This document shows positions 17,595 to 39,806 of a stretch of DNA of 64,000 nucleotides, piece by piece (the stretch's first letter is position 1; each line of letters starts with the position of its first letter). The DNA lies in the IMG/VR virus record IMGVR_UViG_3300006143_000275; one strand, written 5' to 3'. This DNA comes from a virus. Its lineage: Duplodnaviria > Heunggongvirae > Uroviricota > Caudoviricetes. A model generated the notes under the pieces. That model was given only the letters and a program-made list of their open reading frames with translations. It did not search any database and was not told the DNA's origin. A program made the position numbers and the translations under genes.

Positions 17595-17669
17595 TGGTGA
17601 CCCGGACGGGAGTCGAACCCGCGTTACCAGAGTGAAGGTCTGGTGTCTTAACCGCTTGACTACCGGGCC
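17595..17669 (-). tRNA. tRNA-Glu (anticodon TTC)
   Basis: Cloverleaf read by eye; T-loop GGTTCGACTCC; encoded CCA. Confidence 0.6.
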
Positions 17670-17672
17670 GTA

Positions 17673-17748
17673 TGGTCTGAGTGGGGAGGATCGAACTCCC
17701 GGCCTCGTGATCCCAAATCACGCGCTCTGCCAACTGAGCTACACCCAG
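17673..17748 (-). tRNA. tRNA-Pro (anticodon TGG)
   Basis: Anticodon loop TTTGGGA; T-arm GGGAGTTCGATCCTCCC; CCA. Confidence 0.6.
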
Positions 17749-17752
17749 ATAT

Positions 17753-17919
17753 TGTGCGGGCGGGGATTTTCACCCCGCATAGGTAAGATTATGTACCTGC
17801 TACCGAGCTTGTCGCCCATCGGCTACTTCACCGAACCCAAACAGGAGGACAACGATGGACTCGAACCATTGTCTTACCCTACCTCTCGTTATAGCGTCTA
17901 CCTATTCCGCCACCGCACA
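17753..17919 (-). ncRNA. atypical tRNA-like element, about 167 nt, with a tRNA-Leu-type D-arm and a large internal insertion
   Basis: 5' TGTGCGG pairs perfectly with 3' CCGCACA; D-arm GTGGCGGAATAGGTAGACGC matches tRNA-Leu; internal T-arm-like GGACAACGATGGACTCGAACCATTGTC; no clean anticodon arm. Confidence 0.3.
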
Positions 17920-17935
17920 TTTTGTATTGTGTAGC

Positions 17936-17970
17936 TCTAAAAACAGGACTCCCGCAGGCGAGCGTCCCTG
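17936..17970 (-). terminator. rho-independent terminator (minus strand)
   Basis: Hairpin CAGGGACGCTCGCCTGCGGGAGTCCTG followed by TTTTT on the minus strand. Confidence 0.45.
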
Positions 17971-18039
17971 TAAACCTGCTACACTCGGTTTTGAGCGTGC
18001 CCATCCCGCAGGGCGGCGGGGTGCTCCGTGTACTTTGGA

Positions 18040-18073
18040 GCAAAGAAAAAGATCGTGCCGAGAACTACGGCAC
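18040..18073 (-). terminator. rho-independent terminator after tRNA-Gly (minus strand)
   Basis: Hairpin GTGCCGTAGTTCTCGGCAC then TCTTTTTCTTTG on the minus strand. Confidence 0.5.
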
Positions 18074-18075
18074 GC

Positions 18076-18151
18076 TGGAGTGAGAGACGGGACTTGAACC
18101 CGCAGCTTCCGACTTGGAAGGACGGCACTCTGCCAGTTGAGTTACTCCCAC
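18076..18151 (-). tRNA. tRNA-Gly (anticodon TCC)
   Basis: Anticodon loop CTTCCAA; T-arm GCGGGTTCAAGTCCCGT; CCA. Confidence 0.55.
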
Positions 18152-18154
18152 AGA

Positions 18155-18574
18155 TGGTGGAGCCGGCGGGAATCGAACCCGCGTCCGAAATTCCTACATG
18201 AGCAAGACCTTTTTACGCAATAGGTTTCCTTTTAGGTGGATGCCTTATGGCGGGGCACCAAGATGGAATCCAAATCTACCCCAGGGCGTACCAGTTAAGT
18301 ACACCTCCACCACCTTGTCTTTTTGAACAGATTACAAGGAAAACTGTTTTTCTGGCGTATCCTCGACCGCAGGTACTTACCCAGCCAGAGGTGTACCGTT
18401 TTGGAATCCTGCCGACAGTTAAGCGGCGACCCTCTCTGCCATGAAGGCGGCGAAAGCGGGATGGATCATAACAACACTCATATCATTGTCATTTCATTTT
18501 TTGTTTAGCCTTAAGGCGGTCTCTACCTGCGAATCTTACTCTCTCAGAACCCCGTCGAAACCTTTACGGCCCCG
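18155..18574 (-). ncRNA. ssrA: tmRNA (ssrA)
   Basis: 5' end GGGGCCGTAAAGGTTTCGACGGGG matches the tmRNA 5' consensus GGGGCUGAUUCUGGAUUCGACGGG; 3' end GGACGCGGGTTCGATTCCCGCCGGCTCCACCA matches the tmRNA tRNA-like 3' end; the termini pair as an acceptor stem; about 420 nt; internal short ORF ending VAA-TAA. Confidence 0.6.
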
Positions 18575-18677
18575 TAAAAGAGGCCCGGCGTATAGCCGGG
18601 CCGTTCCCCACATTGTTATAGACCGCATGGGTGCGCTGTCTTATTAAATACCATGTTTGCACGTTCCCCTTTCGGGG

Positions 18678-18753
18678 TGGAGCTGGTAACAGGAGTCGAA
18701 CCCGCGACACTCGGAGTACAAAACCGATGCTCTACCAACTGAGCTATACCAGC
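18678..18753 (-). tRNA. tRNA-Thr (anticodon TGT)
   Basis: D-arm GCTCAGTTGGTAGAGC; anticodon loop TTTGTAC; CCA. Confidence 0.55.
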
Positions 18754-18756
18754 AAA

Positions 18757-18832
18757 TGGAGCTGATGCACGGACTCGAACCGCGAACCTAAGCTTTACGA
18801 AAGCCTCGCTCTGCCATTAGAGCTACATCAGC
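18757..18832 (-). tRNA. tRNA-Thr (anticodon CGT)
   Basis: Anticodon stem AGGCT/AGCTT with loop TTCGTAA; T-arm CGCGGTTCGAGTCCGTG; CCA. Confidence 0.55.
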
Positions 18833-18836
18833 ATGT

Positions 18837-18911
18837 TGGCTGGGGTGACTGGATTCGAACCAGCGAATGAGGGAGTCAAAGTCCCTTGCCTTGCCGCTTG
18901 GCGACACCCCA
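18837..18911 (-). tRNA. tRNA-Gln (anticodon TTG)
   Basis: 5' U, 3-bp D-stem, anticodon loop CTTTGAC; CCA. Confidence 0.55.
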
Positions 18912-19621: not shown

Positions 19622-19899
19622 TTTGAACCTCCAAGCATACGCATAAAGCTGTCTTCCTCAATGTCGATGGTTCCTTCTGGTTCATACAGCCTGATCTCAT
19701 TGCGTCCAACATACCATCCAAGTCCATGCTTGCAAGTATGTCCGCAGTCGTGTCCTCTTTGGATGGGCTTACCCCAATTAACACCAATATTATCTGATAC
19801 CCTGCATACTGTGCCAAGGTCGCCTATCTTGATATCAGGATTGCCGTCTGGATGATTACGAATAGCTTCGACACAATCTCCTACTTGAAATTCCATCAC
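19618..19899 (-). CDS. small Cys/His-rich protein (HDCGHTCKHGLGWYV) with a ubiquitin-like C-terminal tail ...SFMRMLGGSK
   Basis: 93 aa; paralog of 19856-20190. Confidence 0.4.
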   Translation of the reverse strand: MMEFQVGDCVEAIRNHPDGNPDIKIGDLGTVCRVSDNIGVNWGKPIQRGHDCGHTCKHGLGWYVGRNEIRLYEPEGTIDIEEDSFMRMLGGSK

Positions 19900-20190
19900 G
19901 CTTTGTCACCCCCCCCGCACGGAGAGCGACACCAAGGAAGGAGTTCTCGTCGATATCTTCAACATCATCTTCGTACGGCCTGATATATCTCGTATGGACA
20001 TACCACCCGTGGCCGTACTCACAATTTCCGGAGCAATCATGTCCTTCACCTAATTCATTATCCCAATCGACACCAACATGATCTCCGTCAATATCGCACA
20101 CCGTTCCAGTATCGCCAACCATGATATAGTCACTCTCATCTGGGTTGTTGACGATAGCTTCTACTCGATCTCCAATTTGATACCTTGCCA
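19856..20190 (-). CDS. small Cys/His-rich protein (HDCSGNCEYGHGWYV); C-terminus ...SFLGVALRAGG reads through a G8 tract
   Basis: Start at MARYQIGDRVEA with an AAAGGGTGG ribosome-binding site; the G8 tract (plus-strand C-run 19909-19916) sits on the GG codons; one G fewer gives ...LRAGG-stop. Confidence 0.4.
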
Positions 20191-20636
20191 TGGATACCAC
20201 CCTTTCGTGAAAGTCTGGCGCAATACTTAAAACCTGTGTTTTATCCCATACATAATAGCCATACTGCATGGGATGGCAAAAGGACGCTGAACTCGGGATT
20301 TTCCACTACCTCTTATTTCAAATAAATACTCGGATCAGCGTCCTAAAGTCCTTGAAATACGCACTTTGTTGTTTGTGATCTGCATTATATCTCGGCAGGC
20401 TACGAGGAGGGCTCCCTGCATCCGGATACAGCTCCCGGTTACTGCTGTCATCTGGTTTGGAATGATGTCGTGTGTCTGTGGGTTCCTGACATCGGGTGCC
20501 GAACTCCTTGAGTCTCAGTGTGTTGGCGGGTTTGGTGACCTTTGTCCTGATGGCCCCTGTGCGGGTCGGCGCCTGAGCAGGTGGTCGTCGGCTGCCGCGG
20601 GATCTCTGATCGCACGCACTGCGGCCGCCAAGCCGT

Positions 20637-20683
20637 CATCCTCCACCCAACCATTCGTTACTCTGATTTACAATACAGAGTTT
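20637..20683. repeat. conserved hairpin motif copy A
   Basis: CATCCTCCACCCAACCATTCGTTACTCTGATTTACAATACAGAGTTT. Confidence 0.55.
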
Positions 20684-20719
20684 AAGTCTTTCGACTTAAA
20701 ATACATCGCAACAACAAAG

Positions 20720-21298
20720 TTATTTTATATGCACAATATATCGCCCGCCGGTCGGCGGCTCTTGCTCAACGACCCGAAAACCAACAGAAGAATACTGATC
20801 CCAAACCTGTCCCCAGTTGATATAGTCGGTCAGCACGTCTTTACTGAGGGTGTCAAGCATCTCGTCTGTAACACCGTGGTCAAACGGCACTTTGAGTTCA
20901 GTCGCCAGATAACAAGCTGCGGTCTCCTTTGCGTTCATCGCCCAATGAAGATCAGATATGTCCTCGAACATAAAATCGTTTTCTTTCAGCTTACGCACAA
21001 ATTCCGGATCGAACAGGTCACCAGAAGACGAAGCTTCCATCAGAACCTTCAAATAATCTTCCGTCATCCCAGGATTTTCGCTGTTGATATCATCCAGTAT
21101 ATCGTTCAATCCACTGATATCGTCGTTTCGGCTGATTGGAATGTTGGGCGTGGTGGACAGAATAATGTAATCATAATGATTCTCTAATTCTGCCCGCAGA
21201 TTACATGGCAGTACAATGACTTTGGATTCGCCGCAATCCAAATCACTGACTTCGACTGCCAGTTGAATCATATCAACCACCTCTTTCATGCTTTGCAT
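20720..21298 (-). CDS. acidic hypothetical protein
   Basis: 192 aa, D/E-rich; sits between two copies of the conserved intergenic motif, immediately downstream (minus sense) of the RT gene. Confidence 0.35.
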   Translation of the reverse strand: MQSMKEVVDMIQLAVEVSDLDCGESKVIVLPCNLRAELENHYDYIILSTTPNIPISRNDDISGLNDILDDINSENPGMTEDYLKVLMEASSSGDLFDPEFVRKLKENDFMFEDISDLHWAMNAKETAACYLATELKVPFDHGVTDEMLDTLSKDVLTDYINWGQVWDQYSSVGFRVVEQEPPTGGRYIVHIK

Positions 21299-21552
21299 AA
21301 ACTTTGTAATCTACCATAAGGGATAGGAAGCTGGCCATGGTTTCCTCCAGAGAGGTGAGTCTGGGAATGTCATCTCGTGTGTTCCCGGCTGTCCGAACTG
21401 GTGTCAGGTTTCAGGAATTTTTGTGACGGAGTTCCTGCTGATTTCCTGGCGAAATGTGCAGTTCGGTAATAGTTCCGTTCTTCGTGATGTTGGTAAGGGT
21501 GTTTAGCATCTCCTGCTGCCGTCGCGGCCGGCAGCACTGCGCAGCCTGGCAG

Positions 21553-21601
21553 GCTCCCTTCTCCCAGCCATTCGTTACTCTGATTTACAATACAGAGTGC
21601 C
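21553..21601. repeat. conserved hairpin motif copy B
   Basis: CTCCCTTCTCCCAGCCATTCGTTACTCTGATTTACAATACAGAGTGCC. Confidence 0.55.
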
Positions 21602-21643
21602 TTTTGAGGAACAAAAGGCTATACATTACAAAATTTTGCTTAT

Positions 21644-22783
21644 TTATGCGGCCAAATCCTCATGGATGGTACGCATTACGTCCGTTTGATATTTTTCGTT
21701 GTTGTACTTGATGACCTCGTCAACATACTTTTCTTCAACCATCCGGTAGTAGTTGATAAGGCCGCGCAAAACCTGAACATCGTGCAGTTCCCAGACAATT
21801 CCGTTCTTACGGTCGAGGATGTAGTTGCTGATCATTGCACGAAAACGCTGCTTGTTCTTGTGACCGATGGTGATCTCATTGTCCTTATTGAGCATGAGCC
21901 CGAGGTTCCAATTACTGCCGGCTCTGGAACCATACCTCGTCTTCTCATCCTTGATCTTGAACGGCGCATGGAAATCATCCAGCGTCTGATTGATGAAGTC
22001 GATGACCTTATTGTAGTCAAACTCTCTCCGGCTTGAAATTAGAGAGTCGTCTGCGTATCTGGTGTAAACGAACGACTGCCCGTTAAAATCACGCAGGGTA
22101 TTGTATACCTTGTGATCAAGGGGGATCATCATCAGATTTGTGAGCATCGGAGAAATCGGCGTGCCCTGCGGCAATCCGCCATGAAGAAAACAGAGGTTGA
22201 GTGCCTTGTCCAGTGCTGCTCTGCCCCGTTCTGACTTGACAATCTCGCTGAACGGGAAAATCAAAGAGAGCGAATACCGAAGGAATACCAGCGTTGTGTC
22301 CCCAAAAAAGTTCGAGAAATCCGTCTTTAAGAACCAATGACTGTCATTCCTCTGGTGACGTTTGATGGCGTCAATGGTGGAACGATTCTTAACATAGGCA
22401 AAGGCGGAGGTGTGGTACAGCGCAAACATCTTGGTCTCAAACAAAGTCTTCAGATTCCGAAGCGCCGTCATCAGTTCTGGCACAGGGGCATTGATCTCAC
22501 GCAGGCCGCCGGACTTCTTCGGAATATGGAATGTGGTATAGAGGGCTTCTCTCGGAACGGCATACAGCTCGGCATTTTGTTCGCAAAAACTCTCCAGAGC
22601 GGAGACCATACCGGCGAAATCGAACCGATCCAGAAACTGTGGCTTGAGTCGCTGTGCGAAATGCGTTCTGGTATTGGTGCTGTTTGAAGTTATCATAGAC
22701 TGCATGTTGACCTCACCAGATATGATTTCCTCAAATGATATCTGATGGTATGCAGGCGATTGCATGACGGTTATGTATGGCAT
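21644..22783 (-). CDS. reverse transcriptase (retron / group II-like RT domain, standalone)
   Basis: RT motifs YTTFHIPKKSGGLREINAP, GLPQGTPISPMLTNLMM and YTRYADDSLIS (YxDD box); 379 aa; no maturase/endonuclease or RNase H extension. Confidence 0.8.
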   Translation of the reverse strand: MPYITVMQSPAYHQISFEEIISGEVNMQSMITSNSTNTRTHFAQRLKPQFLDRFDFAGMVSALESFCEQNAELYAVPREALYTTFHIPKKSGGLREINAPVPELMTALRNLKTLFETKMFALYHTSAFAYVKNRSTIDAIKRHQRNDSHWFLKTDFSNFFGDTTLVFLRYSLSLIFPFSEIVKSERGRAALDKALNLCFLHGGLPQGTPISPMLTNLMMIPLDHKVYNTLRDFNGQSFVYTRYADDSLISSRREFDYNKVIDFINQTLDDFHAPFKIKDEKTRYGSRAGSNWNLGLMLNKDNEITIGHKNKQRFRAMISNYILDRKNGIVWELHDVQVLRGLINYYRMVEEKYVDEVIKYNNEKYQTDVMRTIHEDLAA

Positions 22784-23082
22784 ATTTTTAATACCTCCTG
22801 ATGTCTGTATTCTGGTATACAGTAGGTTGAGGAATTCAGGATGCGATGGGTACTTGAGAGCTGGGACTGAGTGCGGGCTCGGTGGGTAATCTGGTGAGTG
22901 ATTTGCGGCGGTCCGATGGTTCTTGGGGTCGCCATCTGTCTTCCTGTTTGCTGTCCGTCACCTTTCTGGTCGAGATGTCAAGAGTTCTTTGCGTATTTGG
23001 AGCAGTAGAAAACAGTTTATTTATTACCTCTTGACCTCGGTGGCGGGCAGGCGCCTTCAGATTCCGCCTCCGGGCGGGGTGT

Positions 23083-23128
23083 CCCTTCTCCCAGCCATGC
23101 GCAACTCTGATTTACAATACAGAGCACC
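23083..23128. repeat. conserved hairpin motif copy C (start of the RT leader)
   Basis: TCCCTTCTCCCAGCCATGCGCAACTCTGATTTACAATACAGAGCACC. Confidence 0.55.
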
Positions 23129-23227
23129 CTCAGAATAACTCTGAAAGTAATGCAATACAGACTATATGGAAGGGGCAGCGGCAACCAAAGCCACTGCCCC
23201 TATAGAACTATCGTAAAACGTGATGCC

Positions 23228-23899
23228 TTACACGGCGATCACGTCGAATTCAAAAGCATCCACAAGAATCATCTTGCGGAGTTTCTCGCCCTTCACGAAG
23301 TTGATGAAGTTGGCTACGCCGTAGGCAACGATCGTTCGCACCGTCGGAACAACCGACAGTGTGATATTGCAGGCAGAAACGGGCGTCGCCTCTTTTGCCT
23401 CATCATGAGAGAACGCCATGCTGTCGATAAAGTTCTCCACCATCTTCTTGTCGCTCCAGTCAGCGGCATAGTGCTGGGCGTCCGTCAGCCGCATCCGGAA
23501 GTCGAACATCCCCTTGACGAACGTGTTCTCCTTACAGGAGGTGGCGATCTCCCGGCGGAGGTCAATGTTGTCCACCGCCAGGAACACATAACCGGAGAGA
23601 CGCTGGCCTGTCCAGCCCTCTTTGACCAGCTTCAGATCGGGGGCGCAGTCCGGATTGATCTCGGTGAGATACTCAGCCAAAGCATCAACCTTGGCCTTGC
23701 CGATATCCGTATTCCGGAACATCTGGTTGGCAATGTTGTGGGCTTCTACGGTATCGAAGTCATACAGCGTGATTTTCGTAATGCCGAACCGCACCAGATT
23801 CTCAGCGACCGTGGAACCAATCGCTCCACAGCCGATGATATGAATCCGCGATTCGAGCATATCCGGCTTGAAGAATTCGTAGGACTTCGCCAAATCCAT
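23228..23899 (-). CDS. ThiF/MoeB-family E1-like adenylyltransferase
   Basis: Rossmann IHIIGCGAIGSTVAENLVRFGITKITLYDFDTVE; 223 aa. Confidence 0.7.
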   Translation of the reverse strand: MDLAKSYEFFKPDMLESRIHIIGCGAIGSTVAENLVRFGITKITLYDFDTVEAHNIANQMFRNTDIGKAKVDALAEYLTEINPDCAPDLKLVKEGWTGQRLSGYVFLAVDNIDLRREIATSCKENTFVKGMFDFRMRLTDAQHYAADWSDKKMVENFIDSMAFSHDEAKEATPVSACNITLSVVPTVRTIVAYGVANFINFVKGEKLRKMILVDAFEFDVIAV

Positions 23900-23916
23900 T
23901 GTTTGTCTCTCCTTTC

Positions 23917-24789
23917 TTACTGTCCGAGGTATAGGCGGTCATAGGGATCGTCTTCGTCGAATTGGTAGTCGGAAAAGGACCGGCCAATGCCGGTATCACC
24001 TCCGTTTACCTTCGGTTTTGTTTTGACTCCGACGACGCTCGCACCGGCCGTCGCCGCCGGCGTTGTTGTCTGACTGATGGGTGTGACGACCCGCGTCTGC
24101 GTCTGCTGATAGGTTCCCTGAAAACCGGTGACAGGCTTATAGGTTCTGTTGGTGACGATCTCCTTGGCGCTGCTGATGAAAGCCTGAAGATCCACGCCGA
24201 CATCTCCAATATACACATCAACATCTGCCGTGTCGTACAGGGTGTTGTTCTTCAGATCGAAGATGCGGACAAAGTGCTCGTACCGCTTGTTCCAGATCAT
24301 GAAGATGTAGTAGTCGTCATCGGAGATTTGCTCCAGAATCTTCTCCTGGTGAGTTGTGTCCACACCAGAGGGAGACACGCCCATATTGACGTGGCTGTGT
24401 CCTTGCATCCGGATGTTATTGAACACATCATCATCAAAGGAGTAAAGCCACGTCTGGTACGCCTCTTGATCGGTGTTGACCGTTGCGCCGGTAACAACCT
24501 GCGGGTATACCAAAATGTCGGTGATGTGGAAGATGGACGGATCCTGCTCATCACGGTGAACCACGCCGTGCCACGCGACCTCGTCGTTGAACTGCTGAAT
24601 GAGCGAGTTCATCTTGGCGAAGGCAATCGAGGACAGGTAGACAGTTGCCCGGTCGTCATCGCCCTCCCACTTGAACGTCCGGCTGTATTCCAGCTTTCCG
24701 TCAAACATCTTGGTGGACTTCACCTTTGCGATGAACTCCTCCTGAATTTTTTGCAGCAGCTCGTCCGTGAGCTTAATGGGCTTACTCAT
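23917..24789 (-). CDS. JAB/MPN (JAMM) metalloprotease-domain protein
   Basis: JAMM motif GHSHVNMGVSPSGVD (HxHx7Sx2D) with an upstream Glu; start taken at MSKPIKLTDELL. Confidence 0.65.
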   Translation of the reverse strand: MSKPIKLTDELLQKIQEEFIAKVKSTKMFDGKLEYSRTFKWEGDDDRATVYLSSIAFAKMNSLIQQFNDEVAWHGVVHRDEQDPSIFHITDILVYPQVVTGATVNTDQEAYQTWLYSFDDDVFNNIRMQGHSHVNMGVSPSGVDTTHQEKILEQISDDDYYIFMIWNKRYEHFVRIFDLKNNTLYDTADVDVYIGDVGVDLQAFISSAKEIVTNRTYKPVTGFQGTYQQTQTRVVTPISQTTTPAATAGASVVGVKTKPKVNGGDTGIGRSFSDYQFDEDDPYDRLYLGQ

Positions 24790-26275
24790 GGCTCTCCTCC
24801 TGTTCTTTTTCTTTCTTCGCCTTGACATCTTGTTCCTCCAACCACAATACGGCCTCAAACGGCGTCTTGGTCGTACCGTCGGGCATTTCGATTACCTTAC
24901 CGATCCTGTTCGAGAACAGCAACTGCGTCATCTTGCCGGTTGTTGCGCTCTCCTGAACATTGACGCTCTTTGCCGACTGAACACAAGCAGCTACCGCGCC
25001 GACATAATCCCGGTTACGCATAGATTGGCGAATTGTCGCCTCATTTCCACCAAGGCAGTGAAACGCCTGGATGTGCTGGTTCGGCGTGTGATCCATGATG
25101 ATATCCGACGGGAAATCGTATCCGCTAATCCCGGCGTACCTGCCGTTATCGAAGTTCAGCGAATATGCGGCGCAAATGCGAATCTTCATCGTCTCTTTGA
25201 CGAAAATCTCCGTCATCAGACGCTTAATGCGCTCTACCGTCATATTTTCGTTGTCACGATATTCATAGATGTAGCTACGGTTATTCTGAATGACGGACTC
25301 CGCTGCGTCAGGATCGAAGTTTGCAACCGTGGTGGTTACAATGAACTTGATTTCGCCATTGTATACGCTGACCAGATGCAGCGAATTGTTGCATAGGAAG
25401 TAGTCCAAAAGCTCGCTGCTCTCCGCGCCGCCTCCGTGTGTGATTTTATCGACCAGACCGCACTCCTGCGTTCTCAGGTCGTCCATCTGCTGGTAGTAAT
25501 TGGAGAAAGTGCTCTCCAAATCACGCATCCTGCGATCCATATCGTTGATCTGGCTGCGGACGGACTCCAGCTTCCGGCGGTCAAAGTGTGTTTCAAAGCC
25601 GGTCAACTGATTGCGGATAACCTGTGACCGGAAGTCAAACCGCTTGGCGAACTCCTGAATCTTCGTTTCATAGCTGGGGGCGTAACGCTTTGTGAGCGTC
25701 TTGACGATCTCAATCTCCTCGTCAGTCATCGGATTGGACTCGAAGTACCACGGGAAGTAGCGGGAAATCAGAGACTCCAGCATGTGCCACCGCTTCATGT
25801 TCATCTTTTCCGTGAAGATGATGGTGTTGCGGTACTCCTCGTTCACATAGACCTTGGCGCGGAACTTTGCGTCGCTCTCAATCCATGCGGACAGATCCGC
25901 CAGGAGCTTGTATCCAGAGACTGTCTTTGGAACACCTTCAACGAGTTTCTCGAAGCAGGTTGTGTTGCTCTCGTCGCTCCCCTCAAATGAATGGATGAGC
26001 AAAATGCCGGTTGAACCATCCATAATCGGAGTTCGGTTAAAGAAAGCCCTGACGCAGTCTCTCGGAGACGAGCCAGATAACTGCCCGGAACTGTAGTCTG
26101 TGCTTTTATATCGCAGTGTGATTGACTCCTCTTTCGGAACCCTGCTATACAGCAAAGCTCTCAAGGTCGCAACGAACGACTCGTCATTGCGGAACTTATC
26201 TCCGCCGATATTCGGGAATACGGTCGATGCGATCTCATTGGTGAGAGTCAGACCAGTGATTTCTTTTGAGAACAT
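24782..26275 (-). CDS. large hypothetical protein (497 aa) in the E1/JAB operon; possible E2-like region
   Basis: C-terminal DHTPNQHIQAFHC loosely resembles the UBC HPN...C catalytic motif (weak). Confidence 0.35.
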   Translation of the reverse strand: MFSKEITGLTLTNEIASTVFPNIGGDKFRNDESFVATLRALLYSRVPKEESITLRYKSTDYSSGQLSGSSPRDCVRAFFNRTPIMDGSTGILLIHSFEGSDESNTTCFEKLVEGVPKTVSGYKLLADLSAWIESDAKFRAKVYVNEEYRNTIIFTEKMNMKRWHMLESLISRYFPWYFESNPMTDEEIEIVKTLTKRYAPSYETKIQEFAKRFDFRSQVIRNQLTGFETHFDRRKLESVRSQINDMDRRMRDLESTFSNYYQQMDDLRTQECGLVDKITHGGGAESSELLDYFLCNNSLHLVSVYNGEIKFIVTTTVANFDPDAAESVIQNNRSYIYEYRDNENMTVERIKRLMTEIFVKETMKIRICAAYSLNFDNGRYAGISGYDFPSDIIMDHTPNQHIQAFHCLGGNEATIRQSMRNRDYVGAVAACVQSAKSVNVQESATTGKMTQLLFSNRIGKVIEMPDGTTKTPFEAVLWLEEQDVKAKKEKEQEESHE

Positions 26276-26364
26276 AGCCTGCTCCTTTTCTGAAAGATTT
26301 AAGGGCTCCCACCGCTCAGATGGGAGCCCTCGGCCCTATGTATAGGGGACTGCGGTGGGTCTGA

Positions 26365-26619
26365 TCAGGCGTTGTCAGCCTTGACGACGGAGATCAGGAA
26401 GCACTTGTCGTGGCCGGGCTCGCCGGTGTAGCCCATCTCGGCGAAGGTCTGATCCAGCTTGGCACCGGTGACGGTCTCGCCGTCCAGGGACAGCATACCC
26501 ACGGAGTAGTCGATGCCGGTCTCGCCCTGGGTGCTCTCCAGAGCCTGGCGGATGGTGGTGTTGGGGTTCAGGTTGAAACGGGCGCGCTTCAGGTTGTTAC
26601 CGATAGTGACGTTAATCAT
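26365..26619 (-). CDS. small protein (84 aa), possible beta-grasp/Ubl-like
   Basis: Alternating strand/helix pattern MINVTIGNN...MLSLDGETVTGAKL reminiscent of ThiS/MoaD; C-terminus is not GG. Confidence 0.3.
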   Translation of the reverse strand: MINVTIGNNLKRARFNLNPNTTIRQALESTQGETGIDYSVGMLSLDGETVTGAKLDQTFAEMGYTGEPGHDKCFLISVVKADNA

Positions 26620-26706
26620 GATTCATTCTCCTTCTTATTCAAAAAATTTTGGGTTGACAGGTTTGTGTTGCCGGGCGGGGATTCCCCCGCCCGGACTTAG
26701 CCATCC

Positions 26707-27108
26707 TTAGATGACGGTGATGTTAGCCATGACCTCGGCGTTCTCAGCCTCGACCTCGGCCAGGGCATCGTCGATGCCGGCCTCCACCTTGTTCAGGCGA
26801 ACCACGGCCTTGCCGACCAGCTTGGCAGCATAGTCGATCACGTTCTCAGTCCCAGCGGGGACGGGAATCGTGATGGTGGCCAGCTTCGCCTCGTCGTGGG
26901 TCTCGGAGGCGAAAGTCGCGCCGTTCTGGTTGATGCTGCCGGCAGCAGCGGCGGTCTCCACGCGGAAGATTTCCTCCTTCTTACCGTTCTCATCGGTCTC
27001 GATGAGACGAAGAGCCTTCGGGCGGTACTCCTCCAGCGTCTTCAGAGCCTTGAGGCTCTTGCCGCTGGTGACGATGATCGCGTCACCAGCAATGGTGATC
27101 TTTGCCAT
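26707..27108 (-). CDS. hypothetical protein (start at MAKITIAGD)
   Basis: Ribosome-binding site AAAGGATG upstream; the listed ORF extends through a structured leader. Confidence 0.35.
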   Translation of the reverse strand: MAKITIAGDAIIVTSGKSLKALKTLEEYRPKALRLIETDENGKKEEIFRVETAAAAGSINQNGATFASETHDEAKLATITIPVPAGTENVIDYAAKLVGKAVVRLNKVEAGIDDALAEVEAENAEVMANITVI

Positions 27109-27219
27109 ACTGATACATCCTTTCTGTTCGGGCTTTGCCCTTAATATGTACCCCGTTTGCTCACCCCCCCCCATCGGGGGCTCCCCAGCCTGAACCACGA
27201 GGAGGTGGGGCCGATCAGG

Positions 27220-27253
27220 CCGCAAAGAACCCCGTAACTTTTCAGCTACGGGG
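27220..27253 (-). terminator. rho-independent terminator (minus strand)
   Basis: CCCCGTAGCTGAAAAGTTACGGGG followed by TTCTTTG. Confidence 0.5.
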
Positions 27254-27259
27254 CTCTTG

Positions 27260-27703
27260 TCAACTTCTGATGATTCGATTGAATGCGTCTTCTGATATTT
27301 CCGGGTTATTGCAGGCCATCCCCTCTGGATGGTATTCAAAGTGGCAGTATGGATACCAGTCGTTATAGTCTCCGGTTCCAACCTCCAAAATGATCTCGTC
27401 AGTTACCTCGTCTTGCATCACCAGGATGTCATTATCGTATCCGCCATCTTCTTCGTTCTTCATGTAACATTTCATGGCCTGCGGCGGAAACGAATATCTC
27501 GGCGGATCATCGGACACAACAAGCTCCCTGCATCTGCTTCTATATCCATCTTCCGGGTCTTCGACAGCCATGTAGTGAACACCGTCAAGCGTAAACTTTA
27601 CGAAGTTGCAATCCTGTGATTCACCCCAACTATCATCCACACATATACGTCCGGTTTCGACACCTGACAGTTTGTGTGTTCCTACCAAATCGGAAAGTTC
27701 CAC
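27260..27703 (-). CDS. small protein with conserved C-terminal tail ...EDAFNRIIRS
   Basis: 147 aa; GTG start after GGGAGGTG. Confidence 0.4.
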   Translation of the reverse strand: MELSDLVGTHKLSGVETGRICVDDSWGESQDCNFVKFTLDGVHYMAVEDPEDGYRSRCRELVVSDDPPRYSFPPQAMKCYMKNEEDGGYDNDILVMQDEVTDEIILEVGTGDYNDWYPYCHFEYHPEGMACNNPEISEDAFNRIIRS

Positions 27704-27707
27704 TTAA

Positions 27708-28022
27708 TCACCTCCCGATGATAGCCGCAAAACTTTCGTCGGAGATGTCCTCTTGCTCTTCCCCATAGAAAGTGCATTTCATGTAGTCGTCCGCATCGTT
27801 CTTTGACCCATATCTCACAGTATCGCCTCTGATATAGTAGCAGAAATTACCACGGTGTTTCTCCCAGTAATTTTTCTTCAGAGGACTCTCGCCGGTCGGG
27901 TATTTGATGCCAAACGCGACTAATATTGCGGCAAATTCACGCTCCAAATCTGCTTCTGGGCAATTTACAGCAACATAGCTGTTTTCTCCCAGCATTGATG
28001 TATCAAATGGCCTGTCCCACAT
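27708..28022 (-). CDS. small protein (paralog of 28028-28384), tail ...DESFAAIIGR
   Basis: Shared CPxxDL...KCTFYG core with the next ORF. Confidence 0.4.
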   Translation of the reverse strand: MWDRPFDTSMLGENSYVAVNCPEADLEREFAAILVAFGIKYPTGESPLKKNYWEKHRGNFCYYIRGDTVRYGSKNDADDYMKCTFYGEEQEDISDESFAAIIGR

Positions 28023-28027
28023 TTGTC

Positions 28028-28384
28028 TTACCTCCCTTGATTACCCCCCCCCGCAGAGATAATTGCTTCAAATCCGGCATCGGAGATTTCAAAGTCGGGC
28101 TCCACGCCGTAAAATGTGCATTTGATATAATTTCTGTATGCGCTGTCTGAGTAACATGTTCTGCTCCCATATTTCATTGTTCCTCGCGGTTCAATGCGAT
28201 AACAGGTTTCTTCTCTGTTCTCATGCCAATGAGTTTCTCCAACTGGCTCATCACCATACCATTTTATATCGTTTTCTTCTAAAAACGAAAACAGTTCATC
28301 TACCAAGTCTTTGTCAGGACAATGGATGATGACACCGTTGAATAGCATTGAAATCTCAAGCGGAGTGTCTGGCCAATCTACCAT
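28028..28384 (-). CDS. small protein, tail ...DAGFEAIISAGGGNQGR through a G9 tract
   Basis: G9 (plus-strand C-run 28044-28052) encodes GGG; two fewer G give ...ISAGG-stop. Confidence 0.4.
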   Translation of the reverse strand: MVDWPDTPLEISMLFNGVIIHCPDKDLVDELFSFLEENDIKWYGDEPVGETHWHENREETCYRIEPRGTMKYGSRTCYSDSAYRNYIKCTFYGVEPDFEISDAGFEAIISAGGGNQGR

Positions 28385-28390
28385 TGAGAC

Positions 28391-28636
28391 TCACCCCCCC
28401 CGAGTTAGAATATTGAGCAGAGACTCGAAGTCGGTGTAATCGTAAGGATTGATGGGATGACCATTATACATAGCAAAGAGCACTTTTGCATCGTTGGCTG
28501 GAACAAAATTGCATTCACCATTCCAATCGTCAACGACGCCCTGAAGGTACTTAGCCTGAATCAAGTACGGATCGCCATCTGCGTTTTCAGTGACGACAAC
28601 CGTATCGCTACCAAGCATAACAGTTTTCAGATCCAC
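28391..28636 (-). CDS. ubiquitin-sized protein (81 aa) ending ...LNILTRGG
   Basis: The C-terminal RGG is encoded inside a G8 tract (C-run 28394-28401) and followed directly by a stop; GTG start. Confidence 0.4.
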   Translation of the reverse strand: MDLKTVMLGSDTVVVTENADGDPYLIQAKYLQGVVDDWNGECNFVPANDAKVLFAMYNGHPINPYDYTDFESLLNILTRGG

Positions 28637-28836: not shown

Positions 28837-28922
28837 TGGTGTCGATGATGGGATTTGAACCCATACGGCGTTAGAGCCAACAGGGTTTGAGCCTGTCATG
28901 TCTACTATTCCATCACATCGAC
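28837..28922 (-). tRNA. tRNA-Leu (anticodon CAA), type II
   Basis: Anticodon loop CTCAAAC; long variable arm; T-arm ATGGGTTCAAATCCCAT; CCA. Confidence 0.5.
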
Positions 28923-28925
28923 ATA

Positions 28926-29012
28926 TGGTGTGGGCGGCGGGAATTGAACCCGCACATCGAACCCGATATAGAGGCTTAAACTCCATGTGTCTTCCAATTC
29001 CACCACGCCCAC
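28926..29012 (-). tRNA. tRNA-Leu (anticodon TAA), type II
   Basis: Anticodon loop TTTAAGC; variable arm with ATCG/CGAT stem; T-arm GCGGGTTCAATTCCCGC; CCA. Confidence 0.5.
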
Positions 29013-31267: not shown

Positions 31268-31343
31268 TGGTGGAGATAGTCGGGATCGAACCGGCGACCT
31301 CCTGCTTGCAAGGCAGGCGCTCTCCCATCTGAGCTATATCCCC
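31268..31343 (-). tRNA. tRNA-Ala (anticodon TGC)
   Basis: GGGGATATAGCTCAGATGGGAGAGCGCCTGCCTTGCAAGCAGGAGGTCGCCGGTTCGATCCCGACTATCTCCACCA. Confidence 0.6.
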
Positions 31344-31348
31344 ATATT

Positions 31349-31434
31349 AGAGAGTGGTGGGAATCGAACCCACGCAGCGCATATCCGGTTGACAGGCATG
31401 TATCTGCCCCGCTCTGCCACTGAGCTACACTCTC
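31349..31434 (-). tRNA. tRNA of uncertain identity (about 86 nt) with an apparently 8-nt anticodon loop and a long variable region
   Basis: Canonical acceptor, D-arm (GCTCAGTGGCAGAGC) and T-arm (GTGGGTTCGATTCCCAC); best anticodon stem GGCAG/CTGTC encloses ATACATGC; no encoded CCA. Confidence 0.35.
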
Positions 31435-34346: not shown

Positions 34347-34371
34347 ATTGCCCACTCTGCGTTTCTGAACC

Positions 34372-34401
34372 GGGCTTGTGACCGGCTATGGCCGCATTAG
34401 G
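34372..34401. repeat. 30-bp repeat R1 (GGGCTTGTGACCGGCTATGGCCGCATTAGG) followed by an 8-bp-stem hairpin
   Basis: A second copy at 35764-35793 is followed by a different hairpin. Confidence 0.4.
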
Positions 34402-34487
34402 CAGGCGGCCCGCTACTTTGCAGGCCGCCTATCGGAAAGGAAAGAACCGCTGGATGTAACCTACGGCATTGGGAAGCGCCTATGGCG

Positions 34488-35715: not shown

Positions 35716-35763
35716 CTAAAACCTCCCTCTCGTTGCGGGTTTCTCACTCTGCATTTCTCATGC

Positions 35764-35793
35764 GGGCTTGTGACCGCCAATGGCTGCATTAAG
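35764..35793. repeat. 30-bp repeat R2
   Basis: GGGCTTGTGACCGCCAATGGCTGCATTAAG followed by GCCGTCCGGAAATTCTGGACGGC. Confidence 0.4.
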
Positions 35794-36042
35794 AAGCCGT
35801 CCGGAAATTCTGGACGGCGACCCACGCTACTGAGGTTTCTTATTTCGTAAGTGTGCGTGTAGCTTAGTCCGTATCAATTCATAAACTAAACTATCGGATT
35901 TTCCCGACTTTCTACCCACTGCTGGGTCATCCCCTCAGACCAAGGAATGGGGACGCCTCCCAATCCCTTCCGTATCTCGGTACTCTTTTCACGATACGGT
36001 ATGCCGCGTAAAGCCCGTCGCGGTCAGCTTTGCCATGTGGTT

Positions 36043-36326: not shown

Positions 36327-37171
36327 TAATCCCCCTATGCAAATGAACCGCTATGATTTTTACCACGAGGCCAGCCTCCACCTCGTTCAACGCCGCCAAC
36401 CTCCGAACACGGCGCACTGGCCAGATGTTACCTTAAAACCCTTCTGGGCATGGATACAGAAGCACCCTCGAATGTGGCGACAACGAGAGAGTGAGTAGCT
36501 GCGATAGCACACCTATCGCAATCCAGATGCAAACCCCTATTGCAGCACACATCGCAGGAGTAAGAGAAATTCTTTCTTGCGTGGCCGATGGATACAGCTT
36601 CATGCTGGAGCTCAACGCCGCGCTGCTCAAACTTGGTCATCGTATCACCCTCTCATATTCGATTTTGGTTTGAAACCTGATGGCGGAACAGCATACAGTT
36701 CCATTACCCTCAGCTCAACAGTTCACTTGAAGCAAATCGAGGGAGTTTAGCCTGTGAACCCGGCAACATGGGTGACTCGAACGCGGCCCCTATATGCCTG
36801 TTCCGCCGACCGCCCTATTGGGCGGTTTCGTCGCAATTTTCAGCGACTCGTCAGGGCGGCTATATGCCGACTACTTACTGCCGGAAACCTTCTTGCCCTT
36901 CTTCTTGGGAGCGGGCGGGACATACTTCGGATTAGCGGAGCAATATCTGTTTCCGCAGGGCTTCTCCTGCCCGCATGTCTCCTTACAAGAATAATTCGCC
37001 ATAGATTTCCTCCGTTCATTTTTTGATTTGTGAACCTCAGCAGACAGTATTCCATCCGCGGACGGGCAAAAGCCCGTTTCGCCGTCATTACGGCTCATCA
37101 GCGCGGCTATCAAATGGGCATAAAAAAGACCCTCTGGGTCGAAACCTCAGAGAGTCCTTTTATACGCCTGT

Positions 37172-37989: not shown

Positions 37990-38126
37990 ACAAAACCTCC
38001 TCCTGGCCTTCAGGCCGTAAGTCAAAACCTTTTGCCCTCTCTGCGTTTACACGGACTTGAGACCGTTAGCGGACAACGTCCGCCAGTCGCATTAGGCGCG
38101 GAGGTAAAACCTCCGCTGTGCCGCAA

Positions 38127-38990: not shown

Positions 38991-39731
38991 AACGTAACCT
39001 CCTAATAAGATTTTCTATGGGCAAGCCCATAATGAAGCCCTGGAACGAAGCCGCTCCAGGGCTCGATATAGGTTTGCACTCCCTCTGGTGACTTCTGCTC
39101 TGCGCTCAAGTCCACGGGACGTAAAGACGCCCGCACCACTTGTCGCAGTATTCACCGAAGTGCGCGGCATTTCAACCGCTCACCATTGGGAGAGAAAAAT
39201 TCACGTTATCATGCTATCAAATCCACTCCGGCCAACTATTCCGCTCGCTGTACTAACTCCCTTAGAGCCTTCCGGCGGCGATGTGCCACGCAACGCGCAA
39301 CCCTCCTTGAGAACTGCGACGCCTTTTAAGCATAGTCACAAAGCTGCTTTATAGCTGAGCCATCCTGAACCGTCAAGCACTTATCCACCCACACGTTTCC
39401 ATCACGTTTGCAGTTGGAGCGGAACCAACTGATTGCCGAGAACTCAATACTGCCCGCGTTCAGTACCCGCGCACTGGGAGCCTAACTCTCCCAATTTTTG
39501 GCTGGCCTTCTCTTGGGACGGTTGGAGCCGTCACATGTTGCAAGAGTACACTTCTTCTGATGGCAGAAGTACCCCTTGAGCAAGCGTGGGATGCCCTCAA
39601 GGTGGCGCTGAGATACCCCTCTGCATTACAGGCTTGGGACTGACCGGCCAATACCCATAAGGGATTGACTGGGCTGCATTGGTATCTTGTTTTTTTTGGT
39701 GGGGCGGTGCTGTGCCGTTCGCCCTACATAT

Positions 39732-39752
39732 ACGCATGGGCTTGTATGTCAC
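39732..39752. repeat. 21-bp repeat ACGCATGGGCTTGTATGTCAC, copy 1, in the terminator loop downstream of the regulator gene
   Basis: Identical 21-mer at 40731-40751. Confidence 0.45.
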
Positions 39753-39764
39753 CAGAGGGCGAAC

Positions 39765-39806
39765 GAAAAAAAAAAAGAGGGGCGCGGCGTGTGCCGCTCC
39801 CCTCTT
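39765..39806 (-). terminator. rho-independent terminator downstream of the sigma-like regulator gene (minus strand)
   Basis: AAGAGGGGAGCGGCACACGCCGCGCCCCTCTT followed by T11 on the minus strand. Confidence 0.55.

Follow-up and report, generated by a model that had tools for sequence, protein, structure and literature searches.

Four long G-runs in a 64,000-nt stretch of gut phage DNA (IMG/VR record IMGVR_UViG_3300006143_000275; the whole stretch is called the window below) differ in length between genomes that are otherwise nearly identical and are therefore real hypermutable repeats. The phage is about 140 kb in size and common across gut metagenomes, and its host is probably a member of the Lachnospiraceae. 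The tracts lie on the sense strand of an early operon. Taken as a whole, the explanation that is favored here, and that is probably correct, is that they are hypermutable G-runs tolerated as near-harmless at places where G-rich RNA already serves a function. Exactly four plus-strand C-runs had been reported for this DNA in a first-pass annotation, and their positions and lengths proved accurate to the nucleotide (Table 1); they are also, as claimed there, the sole long C/G runs in the 64 kb, which contain no other G/C run of at least 6 nt.

Table 1. Features of the window; tract lengths are given as G-runs on the minus strand.
Feature	Position	Strand	Remarks
Tract A, G8	28394..28401	(-)	last codons of gene A; G6-G9 in other assemblies
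Tract B, G9	28044..28052	(-)	last codons of gene B; G7-G10 elsewhere
Tract C, G9	27164..27172	(-)	3' strand of P4 hairpin in HDV-like ribozyme candidate; G8 elsewhere
Tract D, G8	19909..19916	(-)	last codons of gene D; G7-G12 elsewhere, modal G9
Gene A, 81 aa	28391..28636	(-)	ends ...TRGG-stop with G8
Gene B, 118 aa in G9 state	28028..28384	(-)	ORFan; paralog of B'; 113, 114 or 126 aa in other states
Gene B', 104 aa	27708..28022	(-)	paralog of B; ends ...AIIGR-stop, encoded by GGGAGGTGA
Terminator-type hairpin	27225..27255	(-)	just upstream of predicted ribozyme cleavage site; compensatory changes in L022
HDV-like self-cleaving ribozyme candidate	27151..27221	(-)	Rfam HDV match and structural descriptor; previously unannotated
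E1/JAB cassette	23228..27108	(-)	133-aa protein, 84-aa ubiquitin-like candidate, 497-aa protein, JAMM/JAB, ThiF-type E1
84-aa ubiquitin-like candidate	26365-26619	(-)	within E1/JAB cassette; ends ...KADNA, without Gly
JAMM/JAB protein	23917-24858	(-)	motif HSHVNMGVSPSGVD
ThiF-type E1	23228-23899	(-)	ThiF match 1.6e-26; E1 domain of CBASS E1-E2 models 1e-20
Gene D, SH3-like small protein, phrog_22041	19856..20191	(-)	111 aa in G8 state
Gene D', 92 aa	19618..19896	(-)	tandem paralog of D; ends ...MLGGSK-stop

The length spectrum of G/C runs in the window is bimodal: 163 runs span 4 nt and 21 span 5 nt, runs of 6-7 nt are absent, and lengths of 8 nt and 9 nt are represented by two runs each. Extrapolation of the observed 4-to-5 decay ratio (0.13-0.19) predicts approximately 3-4 runs of length 6 and 0.05-0.2 runs of length 8 or longer; measured against this extrapolated spectrum, four long runs without intermediates are far from chance. 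Each of the four is directly followed by TGA or TAA.

Hypervariability of the slipped-strand type, which had been proposed for these tracts, was borne out by the comparison of related genomes, in which their lengths are not uniform. Ten independent assemblies per tract display 6-9 G for tract A, 8-10 for B, 8-9 for C and 8-12 for D within conserved flanks, and the overall ranges across hundreds of independent assemblies are G6-9, G7-10, G8-9 and G7-12, respectively. Assemblies with 99.5% or more identity to the window have no indels outside the tracts. One assembly matches the window without a mismatch over 4123 nt, yet tract A measures 8 nt in one and 9 nt in the other, and another pair with one mismatch in 5006 nt differs at tract D (12 versus 9). 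Genome pairs separated by no more than 0-2 substitutions over 4-6 kb have unequal lengths at one or two tracts, and a single tract changes about as often as one substitution arises in several kilobases of sequence. The tracts most likely gain and lose G's by slipped-strand mispairing during replication. Exact-sequence look-ups, whose contig counts are confounded by the shared ancestry of the samples, retrieved tract A as G6 (~26 contigs), G7 (~10), G8 (~34) and G9 (~14), tract B as G7 (~24), G8 (~16), G9 (~36) and G10 (~7) and tract D as G7 (~33), G8 (~51), G9 (~97), G10 (~22) and G12 (3), and natural genomes commonly carry each of the three frame states. Almost no credence can be given to a sequencing or assembly artefact, i.e. 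to miscalled homopolymers of truly uniform length. Homopolymers are error-prone and many of the contigs are thinly covered (3-11x according to their SPAdes names), but the same alleles are found on tens of contigs from various assemblers and sources (MEGAHIT, SPAdes, JGI, Logan), lengths span 6 to 12 and the 4-6 kb of near-identical sequence carry no other indels; A11 and T8 runs are invariant as well, though in a control of just four assemblies, all 100% identical to the window.

Beyond these close genomes, BLASTN searches of both regions against INPHARED phages yielded no match, and a search of IMG/VR yielded one distant locus without tracts for gene B and none for gene D. The tracts stay uninterrupted in relatives in which gene B is 62-71% identical, and the relative L022 keeps tract A though its flanks have diverged, while the tracts are absent altogether from the close relative L149 (gene A 81% identical). 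Another relative carries a G8 in a different gene, again 9 nt upstream of the next ATG.

The three coding tracts form the last 2-3 codons of genes A, B and D, and the translations quoted earlier for these genes hold on re-translation: in gene B, G9 gives ...AGGGNQGR-stop and G7 gives ...AGG-stop, whereas in gene D, G8 produces a 17-residue extension (GG-VTKRDGISSRRLCRSYS-stop) and G7 ends in ...LRAGG-stop. The start of gene D is the ATG at 20191 and not position 20190. In its modal G9 state, gene D encodes 98 aa and its stop overlaps the next start (TGATG). Length changes affect nothing but tails of at most 17 residues and the place of the stop codon. The tail options are ...GG-stop, ...GGGDKA-stop or ...GGGNQGR-stop and a read-through of 13-17 residues, and the stop codon ranges from 21 nt before (-21) to 38 nt after (+38) the next start codon. 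Protein A, whose fold resembles S. pneumoniae SP_1775 (4iaj), ends with a conserved helix, ...YTDFESLLNIL, followed by RGG-stop. The earlier designation as tail-family genes is unfounded, as the tract-bearing genes lack any function match in Pfam, NCBIfam or PHROG; searches of Pfam, NCBIfam, PHROGs and PADLOC returned no function for A, B, B' and the 147-aa and 133-aa proteins. In a sigma-70 scan, none of the tracts coincided with a promoter spacer, and a promoter-spacer model was rejected on this basis. Folding of the RNA that surrounds tracts A, B and D gave MFE z-scores of 0.36, 0.15 and -0.63, respectively, with no evidence of structure, and an Rfam search produced no match there.

Translation initiation signals provide one reason for G-rich RNA at these gene ends. 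Tracts A and D, each with the UGA that follows, read GGGGGUGA, which is the sole Shine-Dalgarno (SD) candidate for gene B (ATG 28384), 6 nt upstream of its start, and the sole SD-like sequence for D' (ATG 19896), 9 nt upstream; no other GGAGG-like motif precedes either start. The predicted duplex of GGGGGUGA with the anti-SD comprises 8 bp with one G.U and reaches -13.5 kcal/mol, compared to -14.4 for GGAGGUGA, under the assumption that the 16S 3' end of the host is canonical. Neighboring genes each have a GGAGG-type SD 4-9 nt before the start. At the matching position the paralogs B' and D' present a canonical SD, GGGAGGTGA and GGAGGG, respectively: in B', this element is an SD plus stop located where gene B has its tract, and in D', the SD of the following gene encodes the C-terminal end of the protein. 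The spacing of tracts B and C does not fit an SD; tract B is located 22 nt upstream of the next start, whose gene has its own SD (AGGGAGGU).

The same G-runs could be slippery sites for programmed recoding, in which ribosomal frameshifting or transcriptional slippage would generate several C-terminal isoforms from one genotype. On consecutive GGG codons, tRNA-Gly can re-pair perfectly whichever frame it slips into; a tRNA-Gly(UCC) gene is present in the phage itself, and SD-like sequences can stimulate frameshifting. Recoding is nevertheless highly improbable, as no downstream stimulatory structure is apparent (z-scores about 0), no extended alternative frame is conserved and variation at the DNA level already accounts for the isoforms.

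Tract C had been listed as intergenic, which is right for its position but incomplete, since it is located inside a candidate HDV-like ribozyme. The candidate features a 7-bp P1 (GGCCUGA/UCAGGCU) with a G.U as first pair and predicted cleavage 5' of G27221, J1/2 UCGGCCCC, a P3/L3 of ACC-UCCUCGU-GGU, GG for P1.1, a P2 of CCCC/GGGG and a J4/2 (GCAAAC) with a candidate catalytic C. A short P4, CCCCC-GAU-GGGGG..., holds tract C. The cmscan alignment displays nested P1, P2, P3 and P1.1, the conserved L3 and the J4/2 cytosine, and the full-length match to the Rfam HDV model scores 34.8 bits, short of the gathering threshold (50 bits), with E-values of 0.28 when the entire window is searched and 0.00079 for a 181-nt region. 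A structural descriptor identifies a single site in the window, with ~1e-4 expected and 0 matches in 300 shuffles. Orthologs of the candidate differ at unpaired positions only. Among unrelated phage ribozymes with an identical P3/L3 core (~20 distinct phage contigs), in which the P4 region is variable, P1 and P2 covary. Minimal HDV-like ribozymes cleave without P4 (PMC10879173). The nested architecture is common to the candidate and to the HDV-like (delta-like, including theta) ribozymes of gut phages (Kienbeck et al., 2024, PMC10879173; RF00094), as are the identical P3/L3 core ACCUCCUCGUGGU, the GG for P1.1, C-N-A-A in J4/2, the P2 partner, the intergenic location in sense orientation and a 7-bp P1 that opens with G.U. 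It differs from them by a short P4 of C5/G9, in contrast to none (theta) or a long one (HDV), and by the lack of an adjacent tRNA, being placed after a terminator hairpin and before the E1/JAB operon. The tract starts at the G of an ATG (27174-27172). If translation began at this ATG, the 133-aa protein would have a 155-aa form that tract C could turn on or off; this was rejected as the main reading because the ATG falls inside P4 of the ribozyme candidate and a separate start with an SD serves the 133-aa ORF. Twister and hammerhead candidates are also present on the transcript. The occurrence of an HDV-like ribozyme candidate ahead of a phage operon for E1, JAB and ubiquitin-like proteins may outrank the tracts in interest.

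SD sequences for tracts A and D and a ribozyme stem for tract C explain the positions of the tracts better than a toggling of E1/JAB substrates. The tract sites can be viewed as places where G-rich RNA already has a job. G.U wobble pairing would allow GGAGG to become GGGGG; tracts A and D with the next UGA would act as the GGGGGUGA SD of the following cistron, tract C would supply one strand of a dispensable P4 helix of the HDV-like ribozyme candidate, and tract B would represent the last codons of gene B just upstream of a canonical SD. The coding tracts occupy the final 2-3 codons, beyond the conserved C-terminal helix, so that the effects of a length change are confined to the exchange of a short tail and a shift of the stop. 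Long G-runs are presumed to be purged elsewhere in the genome and to persist at these sites because they would be nearly harmless there, and diglycine ends would be a by-product of G-runs that are read as GGG codons. Near-neutrality of the length changes is inferred. Against this, the bimodal spectrum and the preservation of tract A in L022 fit positive maintenance equally well, tract B is off the SD position and the unusually conserved DNA that surrounds it is left unaccounted for, and a stop triplet directly follows all four tracts while the SD argument covers only A and D.

Positive maintenance would imply adaptive contingency loci, with progeny forming a heritable mixture of C-terminal tails (A, B and D) and of stop positions that tune downstream translational coupling, a bet-hedging rheostat and not an on/off switch. 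This interpretation is rather unlikely. It is consistent with the persistence of four runs of 8-9 nt in a window devoid of runs of 6-7 nt, with tracts that are uninterrupted in relatives and, for tract A, outlast the divergence of their flanks, with three frames that each reach substantial frequency in place of one dominant allele with rare variants, with stop positions between -21 and +38 nt as counted from the start codon of the next gene and with precedents in Campylobacter phages (Sorensen, 2021, as cited in PMC12823448) and T2/T4 (10.1101/2025.10.21.683753). However, the tracts are missing from L149, the alternative tails are the SD/start region read in another frame and are not conserved in the wider families, and the allele counts reflect in part the common ancestry of the samples. 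No tract state turns a gene off, given that the tracts reside in the last codons and not in the 5' coding part or a promoter spacer. A stronger form of the idea, in which G-runs are deliberately kept at cistron junctions, each burst is a heritable mix of early-gene coupling and C-terminal tails, and one state exposes a GG usable by the E1/JAB of the phage, is quite unlikely.

The first-pass annotation had gone further and suggested that slippage toggles a free GG end, by which A, B and D would become E1/JAB substrates. In such a model, the longer tails would be JAB-cleavable pro-forms. The E1 and JAMM genes do sit between the tract-bearing genes, and alleles with GG or GGG ends are common in nature: ...AGG-stop for B G7 (~24 contigs), ...AGG(G)-stop for D G7/G10 (~55) and ...RGG-stop for A G8 (~34). 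On the sequence level, LRAGG and LTRGG ends resemble the LRGG of ubiquitin, and the ubiquitin-like candidate of the cassette itself ends without Gly. In type II CBASS, a protein without a ubiquitin fold is conjugated via its C-terminus. This model is, however, unsupported and very unlikely to be correct. Protein A is neither beta-grasp nor ubiquitin-like, and GG is conserved neither in the wider families nor in L149: A proteins of 49-70% identity end in RDKL, KEIQK, KSL and others and D proteins in FLEVV, ELVVRK and others, none of them with a C-terminal GG, and in family B, ...AGG is kept only inside the tract-bearing lineage. In addition, the modal B and D alleles end without GG, SD-derived G-runs account for the Gly codons, one of the four tracts lies in a ribozyme candidate and not in a protein, the cassette has its own ubiquitin-like candidate and no evidence of co-variation ties the tracts to the cassette. 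Bacterial E1/JAB systems (type II CBASS Cap2/Cap3; Bil and related) likewise combine a ThiF-type E1, a JAMM peptidase and a small beta-grasp-like protein. The cassette described here differs in being phage-borne, in the lack of a detectable E2 domain and in a ubiquitin-like candidate without terminal Gly, and nothing connects the tract-bearing proteins to it.

In Campylobacter phages, polyG tracts reportedly lie inside receptor-binding protein genes, where on/off switching changes the host range. The tracts of the window are similar in run length and in their frequent length changes and would likewise create mixed populations, but among small early genes they occupy last codons, SD sequences or a ribozyme stem, and none of their states removes a gene. 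Hypermutable polyG tracts of phages are already documented, for Campylobacter phages by a study cited in PMC12823448 (Sorensen et al., Cell Rep 2021), and those described here are a further natural example from a phage that is neither a Campylobacter phage nor a coliphage. In T2/T4 and other phages, repeats of at least 6 nt with elevated frameshift rates affect many gene classes and intergenic regions; most are runs that may consist of any base, mutants occur at frequencies of ~1e-4 to 1e-3 per read, and on/off phenotypes amenable to selection were demonstrated for agt and rIIA (Gomez, Barrick & Waters, 10.1101/2025.10.21.683753). Here, by comparison, only G-runs of at least 8 nt are involved and the variation is between natural populations. 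The poly-G/C contingency loci of bacteria (Campylobacter, Neisseria, Haemophilus) share the bimodal spectrum, the strand-specific mononucleotide repeats and polymorphism among near-clonal genomes, and the phage tracts have the slip-prone length of about 7 nt or more and vary among near-identical genomes. Classical bacterial loci, in contrast, carry the tract within the 5' part of the coding sequence or in a promoter spacer, with ON/OFF or graded expression, which is not the arrangement in this phage.

Public assemblies alone reveal sites in a common gut phage whose mutation rate exceeds that of the remaining genome by orders of magnitude, and they point to SD sequences that overlap the ends of genes and to a dispensable helix of a candidate ribozyme as locations where such runs are tolerated. 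Since the gene lengths read at the tract loci depend on the assembly (81/85/92/93 aa, among others), caution is advised for annotation, and the variability of the tracts calls for the same caution in strain tracking.

Four long G-runs, termed tracts A, B, C and D, lie on the minus (coding) strand at exactly the positions given for all four C-runs in the first-pass annotation, and its description of them as the only long C/G runs is correct, as the 64-kb window has no further run of G or C that reaches 6 nt. The run-length spectrum of G and C is bimodal, with 163 runs of 4 nt, 21 of 5 nt, none of 6-7 nt, two of 8 nt and two of 9 nt. Because extrapolation of the observed run-length decay predicts well under one run of at least 8 nt, the four long runs are not due to chance. 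All four are directly followed by TGA or TAA. The small early genes ending in tracts A, B and D translate as had been claimed: gene A (28391-28636) ends TRGG-stop with G8, gene B (28028-28384) ends AGGGNQGR-stop with G9 and AGG-stop with G7, and in gene D G8 opens a 17-residue extension and G7 gives LRAGG-stop, the start of this gene being 20191 and not 20190. The label "tail-family genes" proves baseless: genes A, B and their neighbours match no functional family in Pfam, NCBIfam or PHROG, and gene D encodes an SH3-like small protein that belongs to phrog_22041, a family without assigned function.

Coordinates of tracts, genes and RNA features (positions in the window unless a contig is named)
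Feature	Coordinates	Strand	Details
Tract D	19909-19916	-	C8 on plus strand, G-run on coding strand
Tract C	27164-27172	-	C9 on plus strand, G-run on coding strand
Tract B	28044-28052	-	C9 on plus strand, G-run on coding strand
Tract A	28394-28401	-	C8 on plus strand, G-run on coding strand
G8 of related contig L150	L150 1179-1186		3' end of 327-aa gene, 9 nt before next start
Genes with shared C-terminal motif	17130, 19618, 19856, 27260, 27708, 28028, 28391	-	
HDV-like self-cleaving ribozyme candidate	27151-27221	-	previously unannotated; core features all present
Twister-P1 candidates (n = 4)	34349-34403, 35741-35795, 38033-38098, 39613-39685	-	40.9-56.5 bits
Type III hammerhead candidate	36820-36876	-	28.7 bits
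RAGATH-4 RNA	39068-39202	-	73.3 bits
Retron-type reverse transcriptase	21644-22783	-	PADLOC RT_II-A 6e-47; NCBIfam retron St85 family 2e-51, below cut-off
Phage-encoded tmRNA	18155-18573	-	96 bits; tag AVEDTPEKQFSL
tRNAs (n = 12)	17595-18911, 28837-29012, 31268-31434		including tRNA-Gly(UCC)

The tracts are hypervariable. The phage, whose full genome has ~142 kb, is common: its neighbouring proteins recur unchanged in 118-333 blocks of the public collection of assemblies, the contigs reaching about 150 kb. Among ten independent contigs per locus, with flanks conserved in every one, tract A measures 6, 6, 7, 8, 8, 8, 8, 9, 9 and 9 nt, tract B 8 (n = 4), 9 (n = 5) or 10 (n = 1), tract C 8 (n = 4) or 9 (n = 6) and tract D 8 (n = 1), 9 (n = 7), 10 (n = 1) or 12 (n = 1). 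Compared with contigs of at least 99.5% identity, the window shows no indels over 4-6 kb other than the tracts, and one or two of these differ even between contig pairs separated by 0-2 substitutions: tract A has 8 nt in the window and 9 in contig L007, yet there are 0 mismatches in 4123 nt, and tract D has 12 nt in contig L019 and 9 in L020, yet there is 1 mismatch in 5006 nt. Exact-sequence look-up of the predicted protein products, counted per contig, recovers G6 (~26), G7 (~10), G8 (~34) and G9 (~14) for tract A, G7 (~24), G8 (~16), G9 (~36) and G10 (~7) for tract B, and G7 (~33), G8 (~51), G9 (~97), G10 (~22) and G12 (3) for tract D. The proposed slippage-type variability is thus borne out, as lengths differ in related genomes instead of being uniform. 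Sequencing or assembly error is a very unlikely source of these differences, because identical alleles recur in MEGAHIT, SPAdes, JGI and Logan assemblies; the invariance of the control runs A11 and T8 of the window, at 39690-39776, is weak as a control, since it covers only four assemblies, all identical to the window there.

Each coding tract follows the helix that is conserved at the C-terminus of its protein. Gain or loss of one G in tract A, B or D produces a different tail and moves the stop codon, which then lies, depending on the frame, at -9, +4 or +26 nt from the following start codon for gene A, -21, -8 or +17 nt for gene B and -12, -2 or +38 nt for gene D, and neither domain truncation nor start loss arises in any frame state of these genes. 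Programmed recoding at the tracts is highly improbable. A C-terminal motif, [DE]-x-x-F-x-x-[ILVM]-[IL] with 2-8 residues after it, recurs in seven small early proteins whose N-terminal domains differ; it is also kept in the wider families and may be a common docking helix.

It had been proposed that slippage toggles a free diglycine end used by the neighbouring E1/JAB cassette. This cassette is confirmed as present and phage-borne at 23228-27108 (-). It encodes a ThiF-type E1 (23228-23899; Pfam 1.6e-26, and 1e-20 for the E1 domain of CBASS E1-E2 models), a protein (23917-24858) that carries the JAMM motif HSHVNMGVSPSGVD and matches RPN11 and JAB models weakly, proteins of 497 and 133 aa, and an 84-aa ubiquitin-like candidate, whose predicted structure, of low confidence (pLDDT 62.7), has ubiquitin, SUMO and NEDD8 as its sole matches and which ends ...KADNA, without a terminal glycine; no E2 was detected. 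The toggle is improbable, as the tails of the wider families are unrelated to GG: in the wider A family (49-70% identity) the tails after the helix ...YTDFESLL.LL include RDKL, KEIQK and KSL, and wider D family members end FLEVV, ELVVRK or IISHIAR. In addition, contig L149 (gene A 81% identical) is without tracts, its gene A ending LCRGDL-stop and its B homolog IISI-stop immediately before AGGGAGG, and the modal alleles of B and D have ends other than GG. Because the link between tracts and cassette fails on family tails, L149 and modal alleles alike, the Gly-Gly ends are a by-product of G-runs translated as GGG codons.

Every gene of the block has a GGAGG-type Shine-Dalgarno (SD) sequence 4-9 nt upstream of its start. 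In the case of gene B and of D', the downstream tandem paralog of gene D, the tract together with UGA, GGGGGUGA, is the sole SD candidate, at 6 nt and 9 nt from the start codon, respectively; its predicted duplex with an anti-SD assumed to be canonical has -13.5 kcal/mol, compared with -14.4 for GGAGGUGA. At the corresponding position, B', the paralog downstream of gene B, and D' carry a normal SD, with GGGAGGTGA encoding the end ...AIIGR-stop and GGAGGG encoding ...MLGGSK-stop, and in L150 (gene A 70% identical) another upstream gene contains a G8, which likewise lies 9 nt ahead of the following ATG. Accordingly, the best interpretation of tracts A and D is that they are SD sequences in a G.U-wobble version whose length now permits slippage. 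The start codon that follows tract B is 22 nt downstream of it and has its own SD. Around this junction (~28000-28100, -), a stretch made up of the final ~85 nt of gene B, the junction and the initial ~20 nt of B' is 87-97% DNA-identical, synonymous sites included, in relatives whose gene bodies are only 35-70% identical, and the identity of contig L002 to the window jumps to 100% at ~28206; the conserved stretch may be a recombination junction or a nucleic-acid element.

The tracts are kept in the related contigs L022, L025 and L026 (gene B 62-71% identical), tract A although its flanks have diverged, and in L022 a G-to-T change interrupts the run and a re-expanded G8 follows. They are absent from L001 and L027 (42-46% identity) and from the Lachnospiraceae genome copies of the A family. 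This distribution fits lineage-specific birth followed by self-sustaining slippage, and selection for tract maintenance may be compatible with it as well; that the runs are adaptive contingency loci is possible but doubtful. L026 also has a C8 (L026 1057-1064) encoding F-P-P-Q inside the homolog of a 147-aa gene, and this run would constitute a genuine frameshift site within the gene.

Tract C belongs to the HDV-like ribozyme candidate. A permissive Rfam scan returns a full-length HDV ribozyme model match at 27147-27223 (-) with 34.8 bits, under the gathering score of 50 (E = 0.00079 in a local 181-nt search). The candidate comprises a P1 of 7 bp (GGCCUGA/UCAGGCU, first pair G.U), P2 (CCCC/GGGG), L3 (UCCUCGU), the GG required for P1.1 and J4/2 (GCAAAC) with a candidate catalytic C; cleavage would be expected 5' of G27221. 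A descriptor of these features matches the window at a single site, against an expectation of about 1e-4, and gives 0 matches in 300 shuffles. The identical P3/L3 core recurs in HDV itself and in some 20 distinct contigs of IMG/VR phages; among these phage contigs P1 and P2 differ yet stay fully complementary, and ortholog substitutions in the candidate fall at unpaired positions only. Tract C forms the 3' strand of a short P4 hairpin (CCCCC-GAU-G9), and its length changes should be tolerated, because P4 is absent from gut-phage HDV-like ribozymes of the minimal and theta kinds, which retain cleavage (PMC10879173). The candidate is placed between a terminator-type hairpin with compensatory changes, which directly precedes it, and the E1/JAB/ubiquitin-like operon. 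The twister-P1, hammerhead and RAGATH-4 sites, all scoring under Rfam gathering scores, are on the same transcript and share the early direction, outlining a ribozyme-rich phage operon.

The four runs are probably tolerated, hypermutable sequences derived from SDs and a ribozyme. Hypermutable polyG tracts have already been described in Campylobacter phages (cited in PMC12823448), as have contingency loci in T-even and other phages (10.1101/2025.10.21.683753). The present tracts are a new natural example of unproven adaptive value, and their location is unusual compared with the known phage hypermutable tracts.

Further features were observed in the window and its relatives. About 450 nt of non-coding sequence (22784-23227) upstream of the retron-type reverse transcriptase could hold a retron ncRNA, and ARAGORN assigns a 4-base "acat" anticodon to an odd tRNA at 31349-31434. 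Contig L014 carries a group II intron reverse transcriptase (609 aa; L014 4547-6279) downstream of the metallophosphoesterase, and L028 an extra segment of ~350 nt (L028 ~1388-1737) in the 39.7-kb intergenic region (window 39699-39753); both differences are strain-level mobile insertions.
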